The translations under genes and the position numbers were made by a program. Below, piece after piece: positions 431 through 7,190 of a stretch of 11,265 nt of DNA. Source of the DNA: a virus. Lineage: Duplodnaviria > Heunggongvirae > Uroviricota > Caudoviricetes. A model generated the notes under the pieces. It searched no databases. It worked only from the letters and a program-made list of their open reading frames with translations, and was not told the DNA's origin. The stretch lies in IMG/VR virus record IMGVR_UViG_2541047828_000001, one strand, 5' to 3'. Position 1 is the stretch's first letter, and each line of letters starts with the position of its first letter.

Positions 431-1714
431 TTACAGACTTCTGGAAGGTTGCGCAGCTCTTACAACACGCGGTTGATCTTCCGCAGCGTCTTCCAGCGCA
501 CTTAAATCACGGTCTTTCACCTCTGGCATTTTCAGCGCAGAGATTAAACCAATTACTGAATATGCCATGATCATAATGGCGATCGGATACCAGGATTCCG
601 TCATGGTGCAGAAAATACCCGCCAGGATAGGACCAAAACCGGAAGCGATAAGACCACCAATTTCTTTAGAAATAGCCATCCGGGTAAAGCGGTTTTTACA
701 GCCGAACATTTCTGCCATGGTAATGTTTTCCAGAGCAAATAATCCCAGCACCGCACAGTTATGAATCACAATCAGTGCAACCATAATGGTGCTCGGGGCA
801 TAGCTTTTATCTACAATGATAGAAAGCATTGGCCATGCCAGCACAATCGCGGAGGTATTCATAATAATATACGGGATCCGGCGACCAATTTTATCGGATA
901 ACCAACCAAGGAACGGAATGGTCATAAAGCCGAGAATCGAACTAATCATCAATGCATCTGTTGGAATTGCTTTGTTAAACAATAACGTCTGCACTAAATA
1001 GCCTGCAAGGAAAGTCTGAATTAACCCGGAGTTACCCGCCTGACCAAAACGCAGCCCTGTTGCCAGCCAGAAGGATTTGCTCTGGAACATGCTACCAGCA
1101 GGTGCAGGTTTTGCTGTGGGTTGGTTGCTGTCATTAACCTTCTCAAAGACCGGGCTTTCTTTCAGATTCATACGTAACCAGATAGCAAAGACCATCACGA
1201 CAACGCTCGCCAGGAACGGTATACGCCATCCCCACGCCAGCAGTTCCTCTTTACTGAGAATGAAGAACATAAAGGCCCAGATTGCCGTTGCGCTCAAGGT
1301 TCCGCAGTTAGTTCCCATAGCTACAAATGAGGAGATAATTCCGCGCTTACCTTTTGGTGCATATTCCGCCAGCATCGTACCGGCACCGGAAATTTCCGCA
1401 CCTGCACCCAACCCCTGAATAATACGCAGCGTCACCAGCAAGATGGGGGCAAAAACACCAATCTGTGCATAGGTCGGTAACACACCAATTAAGGTGGTAC
1501 AGATCCCCATCATGGTGATGGTAATAAAGAGCACTTTTTTACGCCCTATTCTGTCGCCCATTTTGCCGAAAATAAATGCTCCGACAATACGCGCCACATA
1601 ACCTGCACCGTAGGTTCCCATTGCCAAAATTAACGCCATTGCCGTTGATGATTCAGGAAAAAATATTTCATGAAACACCAACGCTGCGCCGAGCGAATAT
1701 AACTGGAAATCCAT
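431..1714 (-). CDS. ydfJ: MFS transporter (metabolite:H+ symporter-like), 427 codons, lacking the normal N-terminal ~30 residues
   Basis: A 427-aa ORF with multiple hydrophobic segments and MFS-like motifs (GxLxDRxGRKK, GxxAEYAPxxKRG). The product starts MDFQLYSLGAALVFHEIFFP, i.e. inside the conserved (E/D)W(Y/F)DF..LYG motif that normally lies ~25-40 residues into MHS-family transporters. An in-frame TGA lies two codons upstream and there is no Shine-Dalgarno sequence. Confidence 0.8.
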   Translation of the reverse strand: MDFQLYSLGAALVFHEIFFPESSTAMALILAMGTYGAGYVARIVGAFIFGKMGDRIGRKKVLFITITMMGICTTLIGVLPTYAQIGVFAPILLVTLRIIQGLGAGAEISGAGTMLAEYAPKGKRGIISSFVAMGTNCGTLSATAIWAFMFFILSKEELLAWGWRIPFLASVVVMVFAIWLRMNLKESPVFEKVNDSNQPTAKPAPAGSMFQSKSFWLATGLRFGQAGNSGLIQTFLAGYLVQTLLFNKAIPTDALMISSILGFMTIPFLGWLSDKIGRRIPYIIMNTSAIVLAWPMLSIIVDKSYAPSTIMVALIVIHNCAVLGLFALENITMAEMFGCKNRFTRMAISKEIGGLIASGFGPILAGIFCTMTESWYPIAIMIMAYSVIGLISALKMPEVKDRDLSALEDAAEDQPRVVRAAQPSRSL

Positions 1715-2317
1715 AATTCACAGGTGTTTTTTCCCATCCTGTGGTTTCCTTGGCGTTTTCTAGGTTTTTTCAGATAGTTGCATTTTTTAAAAAGCATCCT
1801 AAGTTCGATCTCAGTGTCTATCTGGGGCCTATTTCTGTCCCATATATGCCCCAAAAAAACTCCCCAACAGATAAGTAGTTTTTTCATGGATTTATGCGTA
1901 AAATCAAGAACGGCTGGAAATCATTCAATACTCACACTATCGAAAAATTTACCAGCCAACCGCAGCACGTTCTTGCATAAGGCGTGTCTGCGGTTTTTCA
2001 ACTATTCAGATACATCACTCCCATCACATTCATTCCTCCGCATCAAAGGCATATAGGCTATATCACCTTGATATTTTTCTTTTTCAGATAAAAACTGTTA
2101 TCTATGTATACTTTTAAACCCAATCCGTGTAGAGTCTCTGCATAAGATAGTTTGCAGTTGCCGCTTCAGCTTGCGCCATAAACCGCCTGATTTTTGCTGC
2201 CACCTGTTAGCATTCCTGTATACCTGAAACGACAATGTTTATCTACGAACTTTAAGAACACCCAAGATAAAAATTGTCAACTATATCATATATAACACAT
2301 TACTAATTCGAGGCTAT

Positions 2318-2431
2318 ATGAACAGCATACTGATAATCACATCTCTCCTTATCATATTCAGCATTTTTAGTCATGCCCTAATAAAATTAGGGATTGGCAT
2401 ATCCAATAACCCAGACAAAACCGATGTATAA
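2318..2431 (+). CDS. Hypothetical 37-aa hydrophobic small protein ([37 protein letters not shown])
   Basis: ATG at 2318 with GAGG 4 nt upstream (2310-2313). Residues 3-28 are uniformly hydrophobic and the tail is polar. It ends 68 bp before the ydfK start on the same strand. Not in the ORF track because it is under 60 codons. Coding status is unproven. Confidence 0.3.
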
Positions 2432-2499
2432 GTCAACATATCCTGAATCAGACATACAATATCGCAATGAAAATCAATAATATTTTAAGGAATATCTTC

Positions 2500-2733
2500 A
2501 TGAAATCAAAAGACACCCTAAAGTGGTTCCCTGCGCAGCTTCCTGAAGTAAGAATTATCCTAGGGGATGCTGTAGTGGAAGTAGCAAAACAGGGAAGACC
2601 TATCAATACCAGAACATTGCTTGATTACATTGAAGGAAACATAAAGAAAAAATCATGGCTGGATAACAAAGAATTATTACAAACAGCGATATCAGTTCTT
2701 AAAGACAACCAAAATTTAAATGGCAAAATGTAA
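2500..2733 (+). CDS. ydfK: Small prophage protein of the YdfK/YnaE family (77 aa)
   Basis: ATG at 2500 is preceded by AAGGAA (2487-2492) with a 7-nt spacer. The ORF-track start at 2467 has no SD. The sequence MKSKDTLKWFPAQLPEVRIILGDAVVEVAKQGRPINTRTLLDYIEGNIKK is recognised from memory as the Qin/Rac YdfK/YnaE protein, and it sits between ydfJ and pin as in K-12. Confidence 0.8.
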   Translation: MKSKDTLKWFPAQLPEVRIILGDAVVEVAKQGRPINTRTLLDYIEGNIKKKSWLDNKELLQTAISVLKDNQNLNGKM

Positions 2734-3049
2734 TATAATAAACTTACTTTTTTATCATTTTTCCACTTTAACAACATTTTGCTCCACTTTTCCACGACCA
2801 AACAACTTGAAATCTGGTTAAAATAACACGCAACACTATTCTTCTTCCTTGAGTCCGCCCGGAACTCGAAAAACAAACCGAGTTAAAGCCATTTTTCACA
2901 AAATCGATTTTGGGTCTCACCAAAATTACGGGGTTGCATACGCATTCGTTTATTTTCGAACGTGTACATACAAATATGCACAAAAATAATCATAATTATT
3001 TTCTGAGATGCATTATGATATGAACACCAATTTCGTATAGAGTCTCACT

Positions 3050-3640
3050 ATGTCTCGAATTTTTGCTTACTGTCGGATATCAACGCTGGATCAGACCACC
3101 GAAAATCAACGCCGGGAAATCGAAAGTGCAGGTTTTAAAATCAAACCTCAGCAAATAATCGAAGAACACATTAGCGGCTCAGCAGCAACCAGTGAGCGTC
3201 CTGGTTTTAACCGGTTGCTTGCTCGCCTGAAATGTGGTGATCAATTGATTGTGACAAAACTGGATCGCCTTGGTTGTAATGCAATGGATATCAGGAAAAC
3301 AGTGGAACAACTGACCGAAACAGGTATCAGAGTGCATTGCTTAGCATTGGGTGGCATTGACCTGACCAGTCCAACAGGAAAAATGATGATGCAAGTAATT
3401 TCAGCAGTCGCTGAATTTGAACGAGACCTTTTACTTGAACGCACTCATTCCGGGATAGTAAGAGCCCGCGGCGCAGGGAAACGTTTTGGTCGACCACCTG
3501 TGTTAAATGAAGAACAGAAACAGGTGGTATTCGAACGAATTAAGTCAGGTGTAAGTATAAGTGCCATTGCCCGGGAATTCAAAACCTCGCGGCAAACCAT
3601 TTTAAGAGCCAAAGCAAAACTTCAGACACCTGACATATAA
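3050..3640 (+). CDS. pinQ: Pin-type serine recombinase / DNA invertase (196 aa)
   Basis: N-terminal YCRISTLDQ catalytic-serine motif (Ser11) with resolvase/invertase-fold motifs, and a C-terminal helix-turn-helix ([18 protein letters not shown]). Length and sequence match the Pin invertases of Rac and Qin from memory. The Q suffix is inferred from the ydfJ/ydfK context. Confidence 0.9.
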
Positions 3641-3737: not shown

Positions 3738-3911
3738 CTACGGCAGTGCTGGCCATTCAATATCCGGTACTACTGATGTATTAACACGGTTCAGCAACAC
3801 CCGATACTTTTTCCAGACTTCTAGCAACGAAGTTTCTTCCTCCGTTGCGATTTCCAGCTCAACAACAGTCTGAACGTACCAGGAACAGCCTCCTTCAGGG
3901 CTTGAAGGATA
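3738..3911 (-). pseudogene. tfa: 3' relic of tail fibre assembly gene tfa (last ~45 codons, no start codon)
   Basis: The minus-strand frame continuing straight after the stf stop translates as [57 protein letters not shown]. From LEIAT onward it is near-identical to the C-terminus of lambda Tfa as I recall it ([39 protein letters not shown]). There is no Met or GTG start in this frame. The stop is at 3738-3740. Confidence 0.7.
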
Positions 3912-6900
3912 TCAATGTTCGCTTCCTGTTAACTGCCCGACAAGTGCAACCAGTTCGCTTACCTGATTTTCCAGAGTGCTGATCCGGGTGCCTGCTGTTG
4001 CCAGATTTTGACGTAGCGTTGTGTTTTCCTCTTCCAGCGCGGTAACGCGATCATCTGTTTCACGGGCGACCTGAACAAGTAAGCCCGTCACGGCGGCGTA
4101 GTCAACATTCAGATAACGTGTTTCTTCACGTAATTCATTGCCGTCAACCGTTGGTCCCTGCAACTCTTCACCGTAATGAGTAAACGATCCCACAGCTTCT
4201 GGTATCGCCTCCATTACTTCCTGTGCAATAACGCCAGCATAAGGCATCCCGTTTTCCCTGAGCGTGTAGGTGTATCCGTTCATTTTACGGATTGCTTTCG
4301 TCGCGTCGCTGATAACGAGAATATCGTCTTTAAGGTCGCGGTCTGATGACTGATTCAGCGTTGTGCAATTAATAGCGCCATTTACATCAAACAACTGGCC
4401 TGCTGACGTTTTTTGCGCATAAAACAGATACGCAGCAGACGTTCCAACCTCAAAAAAGTTTTGTCGAGTACTGGAACCCCACACCCTGACAGAAAACGGT
4501 AGTTCTGCATTACCTGAGTTCTGTAAAACAAAACGATTGCCAGTCCCTGATTGTTTTGTAAGGGTTAAATCAACAGTTGAGTTAACCTCATTCCTGTTGA
4601 TAGTGAGCGCCTGCGCTGTAGCCCCGTTAACAGCACCTGTTTTGAGTTGAACCGCGCCGTCATTACCATTTAACAGTATCTCAGCTCCGCTAAAGAAATT
4701 TTTTAGCGACAGCATCTTACTTACGCCGACTGATGAACCCAACGCCCACGCGAGAGAATTACCGGTGCTATCAAACCCACGTACAAAGCAATCCATTTTG
4801 CTATAGTCTGACGTGCTTCCAAGGACATCAATCCGCCCTCCGCCAGATTTTAACGGGTTAGATGTGGTTAATGACCTGACAGCAAGATCGGTGGATGAAT
4901 TTAGATCGTCTACTGTTAGTAATTTCTTCCATTCCTGCGTCGTTCCGTTTTCAACTGTTCTTCCCCAAAAACCGGAATTGCGGCCTCCGAACTGCACAGC
5001 ATAATTTTTACTAAATTGAACATGAATGCCGCCAAGAACCATAGAACCTGCCGGGCCGTTTGTACTGCCTGCGATTGGTCTAAATTTGTCGACGTTATCA
5101 GTATGCTGAGAGTTCCAGTCATGACCTGTTAATGTTGCGATTCCTGAGTTAGCTGTAATTAACCCAGACGCTTTAAGATTTTGCACATCAATTCTGTCGT
5201 TTGCGAAATTATATGCAATTGCGTTACTAACGCTTCCGGCATCATCATAATCGCGTTTCTGAATAAACCAGTCGCCAGCATTAGCAATGAGAGTATAAGT
5301 AGGCGTGTTAGCCGGGCGATCTGTTTCATTAAATCTTATTGCTGGGTTAGCGCTCCTTATTTGTAAAGGTTTTTCAACCGTTGATTTCAGTATCGCACTA
5401 TCTACAATTAAATTACCTTCTGAGTTAAGGTTTAGATATTTTGAAGCACCAGTTGAACCATCGTATGTAAACCTTATTGTTAATTGACCTGGCTCATTTG
5501 ATAAAGTCTCAACATACATATCAGCACCAAGACGCACAGTGCTGTCAGTTGCTAACAGTCTTGTATGGAGAATACCACTAGATGTGTATGTATTGGTCGA
5601 ATCACTATATCTATCAAGAAATAGACTGTTAAGTTGAGGGCTATTACTCCTGCCTAATCCAAGATTCGTTCTGGCACCATCAATAGTTGCCGCACCAGTA
5701 CCACCATGAGAAACATCAAGCGGTATCCATTTTTTTTGTGTGTCGCTGTAACACCCCCATGTTGATCCGGTTAAACCCAGGCGCATGGATTTATCATGGT
5801 TATATAACCATGTTTCGCTACTCCATTGGTCAAGACGGTCCACTTCATTTTTGCGAGCGTGGCGTGTCCATTGCGGGCCTATTGTCGGATTCCAGCGATA
5901 AGTATAAAGCGAGCGCGTAGCCCATCCCTGAAATACACCTGTATACGCTGGTGTTCCATCTACCTGACTAATAAACCCCGTAAGACTGCTTTCACCGGAT
6001 GCAATCGATGGAAAGCCTTTTGCATTACTCATAATGCGCATAAATCCGATATACCCTGATGGGTTGCCGGAAATATCAGGACAATCACGCGGTGCTGAGC
6101 CAAGACCGATATTATCGCCAACAATTAATTGCGCCTGGTTGCGATAATTAAGTGCGTCCGCCGCAGATTTCGCCGCGTTTGTTTCACTGGATTTAGCATT
6201 AGTTTCGCTGGCTTTAGCGTTGGTTTCGCTGCTCTTTGCTGCTGCCTCGCTATTTTTCGCGTTGGTTTCTGATTTTTTGGCTGCTGTCGCGGAGTTTGCC
6301 GATGCAGTTTGTGAGTCTGCTGCCGCCTGTGCGCTGTTATCCGCATTCGTCTCAGACGTTTTTGCGGCCTTCGCGGAATTTCCTGCCGCCGTTGCCGAGG
6401 AAGCTGCACTACTGGCACTTGATGATGCGTTCGTTTCTGATGATTTCGCTGCCTCTTTTGAGGCCGCCGCATCCCGGGCTGAGGTGGCAGCTTCTGACGC
6501 TTTCGTGGTCGCGGTGGATGCAGAAGTAGCTGCAGATTTTTGTGACGCTGCAGCATTCGTTTCTGACGTTTTCGCCGCACCGGCACTGGTGGCTGCCGCG
6601 CTTTTTGAGGACTCTGCAGCGGCAGCACTTTTTAATGCTTCAGTGGCCTTTGTTGATGCCGTTCCTGCGCTGGAAGATGCTGACTGAGCAGATGATGCAG
6701 CCTGTCCGGCTGACGTGCTGGCGGCACGTGCTGAGCCTGCGGCATCGGTTGCATGGGTTGCCGCCTCACAGGCAGATGTGCCGGCATCGCTGGCTGACTT
6801 CTTTGCGGCAGCCGTGTTCTGTGCCACTGCGGACGCGTTATGCGCCACCTCTTCCACCATCAGTTCAAAGCGGCGCAGTGCCTCCGGACGGGCATCATCC

Positions 6901-7184
6901 TCCGTCATGGCACCAAGAAAATCATTCAGCGTACCCGGTTGTGAGTCTTCATACACGGTGATGGTCCCGGCATGCGATGGCGGGAAGCCTTCCACCAACA
7001 GAATAACGCTGTACTGACCGTACTCAACGTCCATGCTGTAACGCCCGGCTTCATCCGGATTTTCTGAGGCCACCGTGTTCACCACCACCGTGGTGCTGTT
7101 ACGTTTTGCTTTCAGCTGGATTGTGCAGTTCTGTACCGGTTTACCTGCACCGTCTTTCAGTACACCTGAAATCTTTACTGCCAT
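3912..7184 (-). CDS. stf: Side tail fibre protein (~1090 aa) with a C-terminal intramolecular chaperone domain
   Basis: The N-terminus MAVKISGVLKDGAGKPVQNCTIQLKAKRNSTTVVVN matches lambda Stf from memory. The likely start is the ATG at 7182-7184 with GGGGTG upstream; the ORF-track start is a GTG two codons earlier. The stop is at 3912-3914. It follows lom in the lambda order J-lom-stf. Confidence 0.9.
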   Translation of the reverse strand: MAVKISGVLKDGAGKPVQNCTIQLKAKRNSTTVVVNTVASENPDEAGRYSMDVEYGQYSVILLVEGFPPSHAGTITVYEDSQPGTLNDFLGAMTEDDARPEALRRFELMVEEVAHNASAVAQNTAAAKKSASDAGTSACEAATHATDAAGSARAASTSAGQAASSAQSASSSAGTASTKATEALKSAAAAESSKSAAATSAGAAKTSETNAAASQKSAATSASTATTKASEAATSARDAAASKEAAKSSETNASSSASSAASSATAAGNSAKAAKTSETNADNSAQAAADSQTASANSATAAKKSETNAKNSEAAAKSSETNAKASETNAKSSETNAAKSAADALNYRNQAQLIVGDNIGLGSAPRDCPDISGNPSGYIGFMRIMSNAKGFPSIASGESSLTGFISQVDGTPAYTGVFQGWATRSLYTYRWNPTIGPQWTRHARKNEVDRLDQWSSETWLYNHDKSMRLGLTGSTWGCYSDTQKKWIPLDVSHGGTGAATIDGARTNLGLGRSNSPQLNSLFLDRYSDSTNTYTSSGILHTRLLATDSTVRLGADMYVETLSNEPGQLTIRFTYDGSTGASKYLNLNSEGNLIVDSAILKSTVEKPLQIRSANPAIRFNETDRPANTPTYTLIANAGDWFIQKRDYDDAGSVSNAIAYNFANDRIDVQNLKASGLITANSGIATLTGHDWNSQHTDNVDKFRPIAGSTNGPAGSMVLGGIHVQFSKNYAVQFGGRNSGFWGRTVENGTTQEWKKLLTVDDLNSSTDLAVRSLTTSNPLKSGGGRIDVLGSTSDYSKMDCFVRGFDSTGNSLAWALGSSVGVSKMLSLKNFFSGAEILLNGNDGAVQLKTGAVNGATAQALTINRNEVNSTVDLTLTKQSGTGNRFVLQNSGNAELPFSVRVWGSSTRQNFFEVGTSAAYLFYAQKTSAGQLFDVNGAINCTTLNQSSDRDLKDDILVISDATKAIRKMNGYTYTLRENGMPYAGVIAQEVMEAIPEAVGSFTHYGEELQGPTVDGNELREETRYLNVDYAAVTGLLVQVARETDDRVTALEEENTTLRQNLATAGTRISTLENQVSELVALVGQLTGSEH
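3915..4346 (-). other. Peptidase S74 / C-terminal intramolecular chaperone domain of stf (last ~144 codons)
   Basis: The C-terminal segment SDRDLKDDILVISDATKAIRKMNGYTYTLRENGMPYAGVIAQEVMEAIPEAVG fits the S74 chaperone signature (S-D-x-R-x-K ... Y ... G-x-IAQEV...P). It is followed by a heptad-like tail (RVTALEEENTTLRQNLATAGTRISTLENQVSELVALVGQL). Confidence 0.75.
6156..6839. repeat. Intragenic imperfect tandem repeats encoding the Ala/Ser/Thr-rich (K)SSETNA repeat region of Stf
   Basis: Protein residues ~118-345 are low-complexity with recurring KSSETNA, KTSETNA and SAATSA units. In the DNA this appears as reiterated gtttc/tttcgctg/gcggc motifs. This is a known feature of lambda-type Stf. Confidence 0.6.
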
Positions 7185-7190
7185 ATTCAC

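Follow-up and report, generated by a model that had tools for sequence, protein, structure and literature searches.

The short reading frame upstream of ydfK in a Qin-type prophage is ynfT, a probable single-pass membrane peptide heading a mobile cassette

What is the short, strongly hydrophobic reading frame that precedes ydfK in this viral DNA: a product of chance, a regulatory leader, a toxin, or a gene with a different task? The window, by which we mean the whole stretch of 11,265 nucleotides that was analysed, holds at this locus the left end of a Qin-type lambdoid prophage. Here, a truncated MFS transporter gene, ydfJ (431–1714, minus strand), and the invertase gene pinQ (3050–3640) flank two small genes on the plus strand. 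The first is an ORF of 37 codons plus stop (2318–2431) that begins with ATG and is preceded, 4 nt before this codon, by GAGG (2310–2313), read from the sequence as its Shine–Dalgarno (SD) element. The second, after a spacer of 68 nt (2432–2499), is ydfK (2500–2733). The initial annotation had given precisely this geometry, namely ATG at 2318, GAGG 4 nt upstream, 37 codons and a 68-nt gap to ydfK on the same strand, and it had placed the ORF in a prophage accessory region just 5' of ydfK; both descriptions are correct. It had also called the ORF unannotated, which is true solely for an ORF track with a threshold of 60 codons, since public annotation holds the gene as ynfT.

The peptide matches the Pfam model PF23676 'YnaM-like' with 96.2 bits against a cutoff of 27, residues 1–37 aligning to model positions 1–37 of 37, as well as the NCBIfam model NF041477 (63.9 bits, cutoff 35) and PHROG 35882. 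Its sequence is exactly that of UniProt YNAM_ECOLI, appears at NCBI as 'MULTISPECIES YnaM/YnfT family protein', and is found on at least 999 contigs. In a 100%-identical record the RefSeq CDS WP_120795384.1 has the same start and stop as the window ORF, and every full-length match among those listed bears, beside 'ydfK: cold shock protein YdfK', the label 'ynfT' or 'ynaM: YnaM/YnfT family protein'. The hallmarks of the family are likewise present in the window: a length of about 37 residues, one hydrophobic helix, the C-terminal motif GIGISNNPD[KR]TD and, within a lambdoid phage or prophage, a gene of the ydfK/ynaE family directly downstream.

The names of the gene have changed over time. An ORF between ydfJ and ydfK, described by VanOrsdel et al. 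at 1632890–1633003 of NC_000913.3, is identical in sequence to the window ORF, and 'ynfQ' is the name printed there for this copy (PMC6001520). The gene at 1632890 is currently named ynfT, and a 2024 survey of the y-ome still counts it as uncharacterised (PMC11551758). Its counterpart in the Rac prophage of E. coli K-12, YnaM, has an identical amino-acid sequence and the same context: it precedes ynaE, the paralogue of ydfK, and adjoins a pin-type invertase. The window ORF is the Qin-type copy; it differs from the Rac-type copy (ynaM) by three synonymous bases and in nothing of substance. The window ORF is a known gene, named, detected as a protein and modelled in both Pfam and NCBIfam.

Can a frame of this size be told apart from chance? 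Its length carries no significance by itself: positions 1500–3500 are overlapped by 32 ORFs of 25 residues or more, and this abundance of short frames within 2 kb is the main point in favour of a chance ORF in AT-rich intergenic DNA that has no coding function. Comparison with related copies argues against it. The cassette of the Salmonella phage 118970_sal3 (L002) is 79% identical, and the ORF spans 114 nt in both. Between them we count 15 synonymous and 8 non-synonymous differences, with 15 of the 23 falling on codon position 3. The dN/dS of 0.078 is indistinguishable from that of ydfK (0.079), whereas the remaining five frames of the same region yield values of 0.31–4.7 and contain stops. 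Against a 71%-identical copy from the L216 clade the dN/dS of ynfT is 0.093, and the E. coli-type alleles differ by 10 synonymous and only 2 non-synonymous polymorphisms (S18G, H19Y). Sampling by way of ydfK, and hence without bias towards ynfT, gives an intact frame in 82 of 84 copies. A search with a degenerate C-terminal pattern returned 190 copies, all of them intact 37-codon ORFs and together encoding only 7 protein variants. The homologues of the L216/L217 and L218 clades, to which searches with YdfK led (72% and 67% identical there), are intact as well; they have 39 codons, a difference that is in-frame.

Two copies with a broken frame, in E. coli ECGI0523 (L015) and S. flexneri SFBU0723 (L017), were considered as a refutation of ynfT and rejected as such. 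Their indels of 1–4 nt amount to 2 and 3 events in ynfT, respectively, but also to 2 and 5 events in ydfK, and they occur at similar density in the spacer and the upstream DNA; a second copy of the cassette within each of these genomes is perfect. Because the indels are equally dense outside ynfT, the two copies represent decay of whole cassettes or errors of assembly. Conservation with synonymous rather than frame-breaking changes, which the initial annotation had proposed to check, is what these comparisons return. Together with the detection of the protein they refute the chance reading, to which we assign next to no probability. ynfT is a genuine protein-coding gene, and purifying selection on its peptide is, by the substitution pattern, as strong as that on ydfK.

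Evidence for the protein itself comes from several studies. The products of ynfT and ynaM were detected by immunoblot as chromosomal SPA-tag fusions (PMC6001520, Table 1, 2018), and both genes were positive in a tetracycline Ribo-seq screen (PMC6001520). In the work of Weaver et al. (bioRxiv 10.1101/511675), YnaM-SPA exceeded the majority of newly found small proteins in abundance, although neither retapamulin nor Onc112 produced a ribosome peak at the YnaM start codon. According to the literature, tagged YnaM produced from its native locus is seen in exponential and in stationary LB cultures. At the transcript level, RNA-seq has shown ynfT to rise 5.7-fold and ydfK 5.3-fold along with cspB, cspG, cspI, ymcE, deaD and rhlE (PMC13058169). 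Published data further report ydfK and ynaE to be raised in long-term stationary phase, with the proteins detected after refrigeration. We infer that in the lysogen the prophage expresses ynfT jointly with ydfK, and that both go up along with the cold-shock regulon. The earlier proposal that the two could be co-transcribed holds to the extent that co-expression is plausible, given one RNA-seq table and the synteny described below. Functional work on YnfT or YnaM was not found in the searchable literature, where the two appear in lists and transcriptome tables only.

What would such a peptide look like in the cell? Hydropathy predicts a single transmembrane helix at residues ~4–22 or 4–28, with a Kyte–Doolittle mean of 2.52 over residues 4–22, followed by a polar tail, just as first read from the sequence; the intact peptide would have a mass of about 4010 Da. 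Among the seven 37-residue variants, changes are confined to residues 2–10, 18–21, 24 and 37; LIIFSIF, A20, I22-K23 and G25–D36 are fixed. A C-terminal stretch of 12 residues is invariant, and across nine variants from four clades the motif GIGISNNPD[KR]TD is always kept. The N-terminus (MNS or MDN) bears no positive charge, and K23 lies just past the hydrophobic core. With no charge ahead of the helix and K23 behind its core, the peptide is likely to be oriented N-out/C-in, and the tail SNNPD[K/R]TD would then probably be cytoplasmic. YnfT is best described as a predicted single-pass helix of the inner membrane.

How widely is this gene distributed, and how tightly is it tied to its neighbour? 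Matches to a 701-nt query around the ORF occur in 2809 of 5426 complete E. coli genomes, in 1–3 copies per genome. The cassette is carried by prophages and by the intact phages mEp460, 2H10, Tritos, Turner, Kati and those of the PhiR-series. Its place in lambdoid phages is the accessory, b-region-like part: int or a dinI-like gene lies on one side of it, the genes for the pin invertase and the tail fibres on the other. As a family, YnfT is very narrowly distributed: among 1.84 billion representative proteins, searched exhaustively with phmmer, only 4 clusters came up at E≤0.001. A tblastn search of the peptide against phages recovered the polar tail only, the hydrophobic part being masked as low complexity.

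In 188 of the 190 copies ydfK lies 68–74 nt downstream of ynfT, and the pair is found in four clades in which YdfK is 67–100% identical, as well as in a positional analogue at 60%. In this analogue (L214/L215), the YdfK homologue is preceded 76 nt upstream by a 39-residue ORF of like architecture, MNFPGWIAIVLMIAFAGAGIVALVKIASQVSNNNDEKEP, which shares A-L-x-K...SNN-D with YnfT and falls below the Pfam model; it looks like a positional and architectural analogue and is possibly a distant homologue. Each gene also exists without the other. In L168/L188 the ynfT homologue is intact, with its SD element and upstream block, while ydfK is absent and a convergent tail-fibre assembly gene abuts it. Conversely, there are YdfK homologues at 55–64% identity, from Limnobaculum, Enterobacter and some E. 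coli (62%), whose genes are preceded by a divergent ynfU instead of a hydrophobic ORF. The linkage between ynfT and ydfK is strong but not obligate, because these YdfK homologues lack an upstream ynfT.

The borders of the cassette are visible in the alignment. Five clades can be aligned only from about 70 nt 5' of the ynfT ATG (GAAC...TAAAAnTGTCwA...TATAAC-like...SD), and they diverge after ydfK. That the homology between clades begins and ends at these points marks the cassette as a mobile unit equipped with upstream signals of its own. In the window the conserved block reads GAACTTT ... TAAAAATTGTCAA ... TATAAC ... GAGG (2247–2317, plus strand) and is a candidate promoter/operator of ynfT–ydfK; the SD position is conserved in the alignment as GAGG, GGA or GGAG in the Salmonella, L216 and L218 clades. 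Clean sigma-70 spacing of −35 and −10 elements was not found in this block, and no consistent pair could be derived from the alignment. A scan for consensus promoters and terminators gave counts of promoter-like and terminator-like sites at the shuffled expectation. An inverted repeat at 2231–2244/2265–2278 (14 nt, 93% complementary) was tried as an operator and set aside as chance, its left arm not being kept even in APEC O1. The sigma-70 promoter 'TTCCCA-16-GATAAT' that a gSELEX paper assigned to ydfK maps to 1312–1339 inside ydfJ, about 1 kb off, and is uninformative here.

Between the two genes little is kept. The spacer measures 27, 32, 68, 73–74 or 76 nt in the different clades and is unconserved in sequence apart from the SD element of ydfK, which in the window is AAGGA (2487–2491). 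A promoter-like site within it, TCAACA-16-TACAAT (2433–2460), could drive ydfK alone. Another, TTGATT-16-TAAAAT on the minus strand (2509–2482), overlaps the SD element and ATG of ydfK, and this overlap explains its conservation. Folding of the RNA at 2290–2520 gave a z-score of −0.72. Downstream of ydfK the z-score was +1.12, with no structure and no terminator in that region, and terminator-like hairpins were found neither after ynfT nor after ydfK. A hairpin within the ORF, CCCTAAT-AAA-ATTAGGG (~2376–2392), was rejected as it is not conserved in the Salmonella clade. A search of 2200–2760 against Rfam at E≤1 returned no family, so no known sRNA or antitoxin lies there.

The neighbour ydfK encodes the 77-residue cold-shock protein YdfK (Pfam PF27475 'YnaE'). 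The calculated mass of the product from the ATG at 2500 is 8772.80 Da and that measured by top-down mass spectrometry is 8772.78 Da (PMC5594050), which rules out an 88-residue YdfK starting from the ATG at 2467. The predicted four-helix fold of YdfK resembles AriR/YmgB, one of the ycgZ-ymgA-ariR connectors, at a sequence identity of 15% and with 15.9 bits for YcgZ_fam against a cutoff of 80. When PDB sequences were searched with a profile of the YdfK alignment, nothing meaningful came up and 2OXL was not found; AriR emerged from the fold comparison only. The likeness to these connectors concerns ydfK and not ynfT, and we know of no YnfT-like membrane peptide in the chromosomal ycgZ-ymgA-ariR(ymgB) operon. 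YmgB is a small cytoplasmic connector acting on RcsC/RcsD signalling that also binds SpoT (PMC11451591, PMC10704370). The searchable literature yielded nothing that links YdfK to AriR, nor functional data that link YdfK to Rcs or SpoT.

Which activity, then, fits a selected, expressed and probably membrane-embedded peptide? The initial annotation had offered two options, a membrane-targeting toxin or a modulator of membrane proteins. As a type I toxin- or holin-like protein, YnfT would oligomerise in the inner membrane and dissipate the membrane potential, with low translation or an as yet undiscovered antisense RNA restraining it. Type I toxins are often located in mobile or prophage DNA, and those of the Ldr, Ibs, TisB, ShoB and PepA1/PepG1 kind resemble YnfT in size, in their single, very hydrophobic helix and in a short charged or polar C-terminus. 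The minus-strand promoter-like site at 2509–2482 would even give rise to a transcript complementary to the 3' end of ynfT and the spacer. The sole match to a toxin family, however, is a weak one to the NCBIfam model PepG1 (E 0.055, 13.1 bits), far under the cutoff of 70. A cognate antisense RNA was not detected, the Rfam search and the promoter and terminator counts give no sign of one, and a stable RNA structure or a long structured 5' UTR is absent. Moreover, type I toxins are normally silent, whereas the tagged paralogue accumulates in unstressed cells in ordinary LB cultures, and half of E. coli carry one to three gene copies. PADLOC gave no hits, and the searchable literature contains no report of toxicity. 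What speaks for the toxin half of the original proposal is a resemblance in form only, and we consider it unlikely; the modulator half is the one we favour.

The effect of ynfT might also lie in its translation rather than in its product. In such a case, translating the ORF would only control the structure, stability or translation of the ydfK mRNA in the cold, and the peptide would have no role of its own. Long regulatory leaders are typical of cold-shock genes of the cspA family, and ynfT occupies the stretch that would form the ydfK 5' leader, changes in level together with it, and is syntenic with it nearly throughout. Yet the amino-acid constraint on YnfT equals that on YdfK, including the invariant C-terminal stretch, and the protein is stable enough for immunoblotting. 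Many ydfK homologues lack such an ORF upstream, so that the ORF and ydfK are not always found together. The variable spacer holds no conserved sequence or fold that could act as an attenuator-like element, and conserved structure, a terminator and tight coupling are all missing. A peptide rather than a leader is favoured because ynfT persists with its SD element and upstream block where ydfK is deleted, and because the spacer is unconserved and unstructured; we hold a leader function to be quite improbable. Still less credit can be given to residues 1–20 being a cleavable signal peptide that directs export and is cut after S18-H19-A20, freeing a 17-residue peptide into the periplasm or medium. 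We judged this by sequence inspection alone, against the Sec criteria of a positive n-region, an h-region of 7–15 residues and small residues at −3 and −1. In keeping with the −3/−1 rule, all 10 variants share A20, and the nine clear family members carry S or G at position 18. The n-region, however, is devoid of positive charge, a core of at least 19 residues suits a membrane anchor better than an h-region, and in the distant L214 analogue residue −3 is I.

The reading that we prefer, and to which we give somewhat better than even chances as a whole, is that of the catalogued gene ynfT heading a mobile cassette and encoding a single-pass peptide that tunes a larger membrane-associated protein. 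The cassette comprises the conserved upstream block of about 70 nt, ynfT as first gene, the variable spacer and ydfK. The peptide would insert into the inner membrane as a single helix, probably N-out/C-in, and its helix, with the invariant LIIFSIF and GIGIS faces, would together with the tail bind the larger protein and tune it. YdfK may or may not be involved in this action. Binding and modulation of a larger partner seems the most likely mode, as it is the usual one among small membrane proteins of bacteria, and pore formation or a purely cis-acting leader role less likely. AcrZ, MgtS, MgrB and PmrR are single-pass regulators of E. coli that YnfT resembles in size (~30–50 residues), in the single transmembrane helix and in stress-specific expression. 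They bind a larger membrane protein by way of conserved helix faces and short tails. They have no sequence relationship to YnfT, which differs from them in being phage-borne and narrowly distributed.

A more specific version of modulation would include the neighbour. YnfT and YdfK might form a phage-borne, cold-induced two-part module, in which the YnfT tail recruits or presents the AriR-like YdfK at the inner membrane and the two retune a membrane-associated signalling protein of the host in the lysogen; we regard this membrane-tethered 'connector', brought in by prophages, as a long shot. By analogy to YmgB, the RcsC/RcsD phosphorelay or SpoT would be the candidate targets. Synteny in four clades and one analogue, equal selection, co-induction and the AriR-like predicted fold of YdfK are compatible with such a module; each gene also occurs alone. 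The link to a cold-shock protein with an AriR-like model, and hence to an Rcs/SpoT connector, gives two y-genes of the Qin and Rac prophages a concrete hypothesis that can be tested. ynfT is not a discovery, having been named, detected and provided with family models since 2018. The reading of raw sequence recovered a genuine gene of fewer than 60 codons, which serves as a positive control for that approach. As about half of E. coli genomes carry YnfT/YnaM, often in several identical copies, the effects of single knock-outs would be masked.

Between cassette clades, alignability begins only about 70 nt 5' of the ATG of the 37-codon ynfT gene (window 2247-2317), and the stretch in question carries, in this order, the conserved elements GAACTTT, TAAAAnTGTCwA, a TATAAC-like hexamer and the Shine-Dalgarno sequence. 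On the 5' side, this block is the boundary of a mobile unit of two genes, ynfT and the cold-shock gene ydfK. Canonical sigma-70 spacing was not assignable within window 2247-2317.

Both genes are also found without their partner. A lone intact YnfT homologue on the minus strand of locus L168 (8508-8621), identical in sequence in L188, retains its own Shine-Dalgarno sequence and the upstream block, while ydfK and the invertase gene pin are missing and a convergent tail-fibre assembly gene directly adjoins it. Conversely, Enterobacter, certain E. coli and Limnobaculum carry YdfK homologues at 55-64% identity that lack ynfT (L204-L213, including L208; the stretch 5' of the ydfK-like genes, near 2170-2380 on the minus strand). 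Its place is taken in L208, L210 and L211 by the divergently transcribed ynfU, which encodes a zinc-knuckle small protein (PF23499), and in Limnobaculum a BON-domain gene comes next. At two further loci (L214 2305-2424 and L215 688-807), a 39-residue ORF, MNFPGWIAIVLMIAFAGAGIVALVKIASQVSNNNDEKEP, lies 76 nt 5' of a YdfK homologue with 60% identity. The ORF has a YnfT-like architecture and an A-L-x-K...SNN-D pattern and gave no match to the Pfam YnaM model; on these sequence features it may be a distant member of the YnaM/YnfT family that escapes current models.

Second copies of the cassette in E. coli ECGI0523 (L015 2231-2765) and S. flexneri SFBU0723 (L017 2205-2730) contain many indels of 1-4 nt, spread over both genes, the spacer between them and the DNA 5' of ynfT, and the other copy in each genome is perfect. 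Either a duplicated cassette is truly decaying in these genomes, or the indels are errors left in an unpolished assembly of a repeat.

The Qin copy of the small gene (window 2318-2431) and the Rac-type copy (L016) are only three bases apart, all synonymous. Standard Ribo-seq pipelines that drop multi-mapping reads could therefore under-report it, and this loss may explain the absent start-codon peak reported for YnaM. Naming adds its own ambiguity: PGAP alternates freely between ynfT and ynaM for single copies, and the gene at 1632890 is ynfT in RefSeq and in the 2024 y-ome paper, which is inconsistent with VanOrsdel et al. 2018, where 'ynfQ' is printed for the ydfJ/ydfK ORF in Table 1. For ydfK itself, an in-frame ATG at window 2467 (extension 2467-2499) would give an 88-residue YdfK, the form annotated in some phage records. 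This start was rejected, as the published intact mass of 8772.78 Da fits only the 77-residue product from the ATG at 2500.

Elsewhere in the window, a weak plus-strand Rfam match to isrG at 6444-6609 (23.6 bits; gathering score 100), within the large tail-fibre ORF, is probably due to chance. A minus-strand match to IS009 at 3772-3972, likewise below threshold (85.5 bits against a gathering score of 117; E 1e-18), falls in the interval that separates pinQ from the tail-fibre genes. It extends into the 3' end of the 1092-residue tail-fibre ORF (3912..7190, minus strand) and adjoins the partial tail-fibre assembly gene that the identical RefSeq record annotates there.
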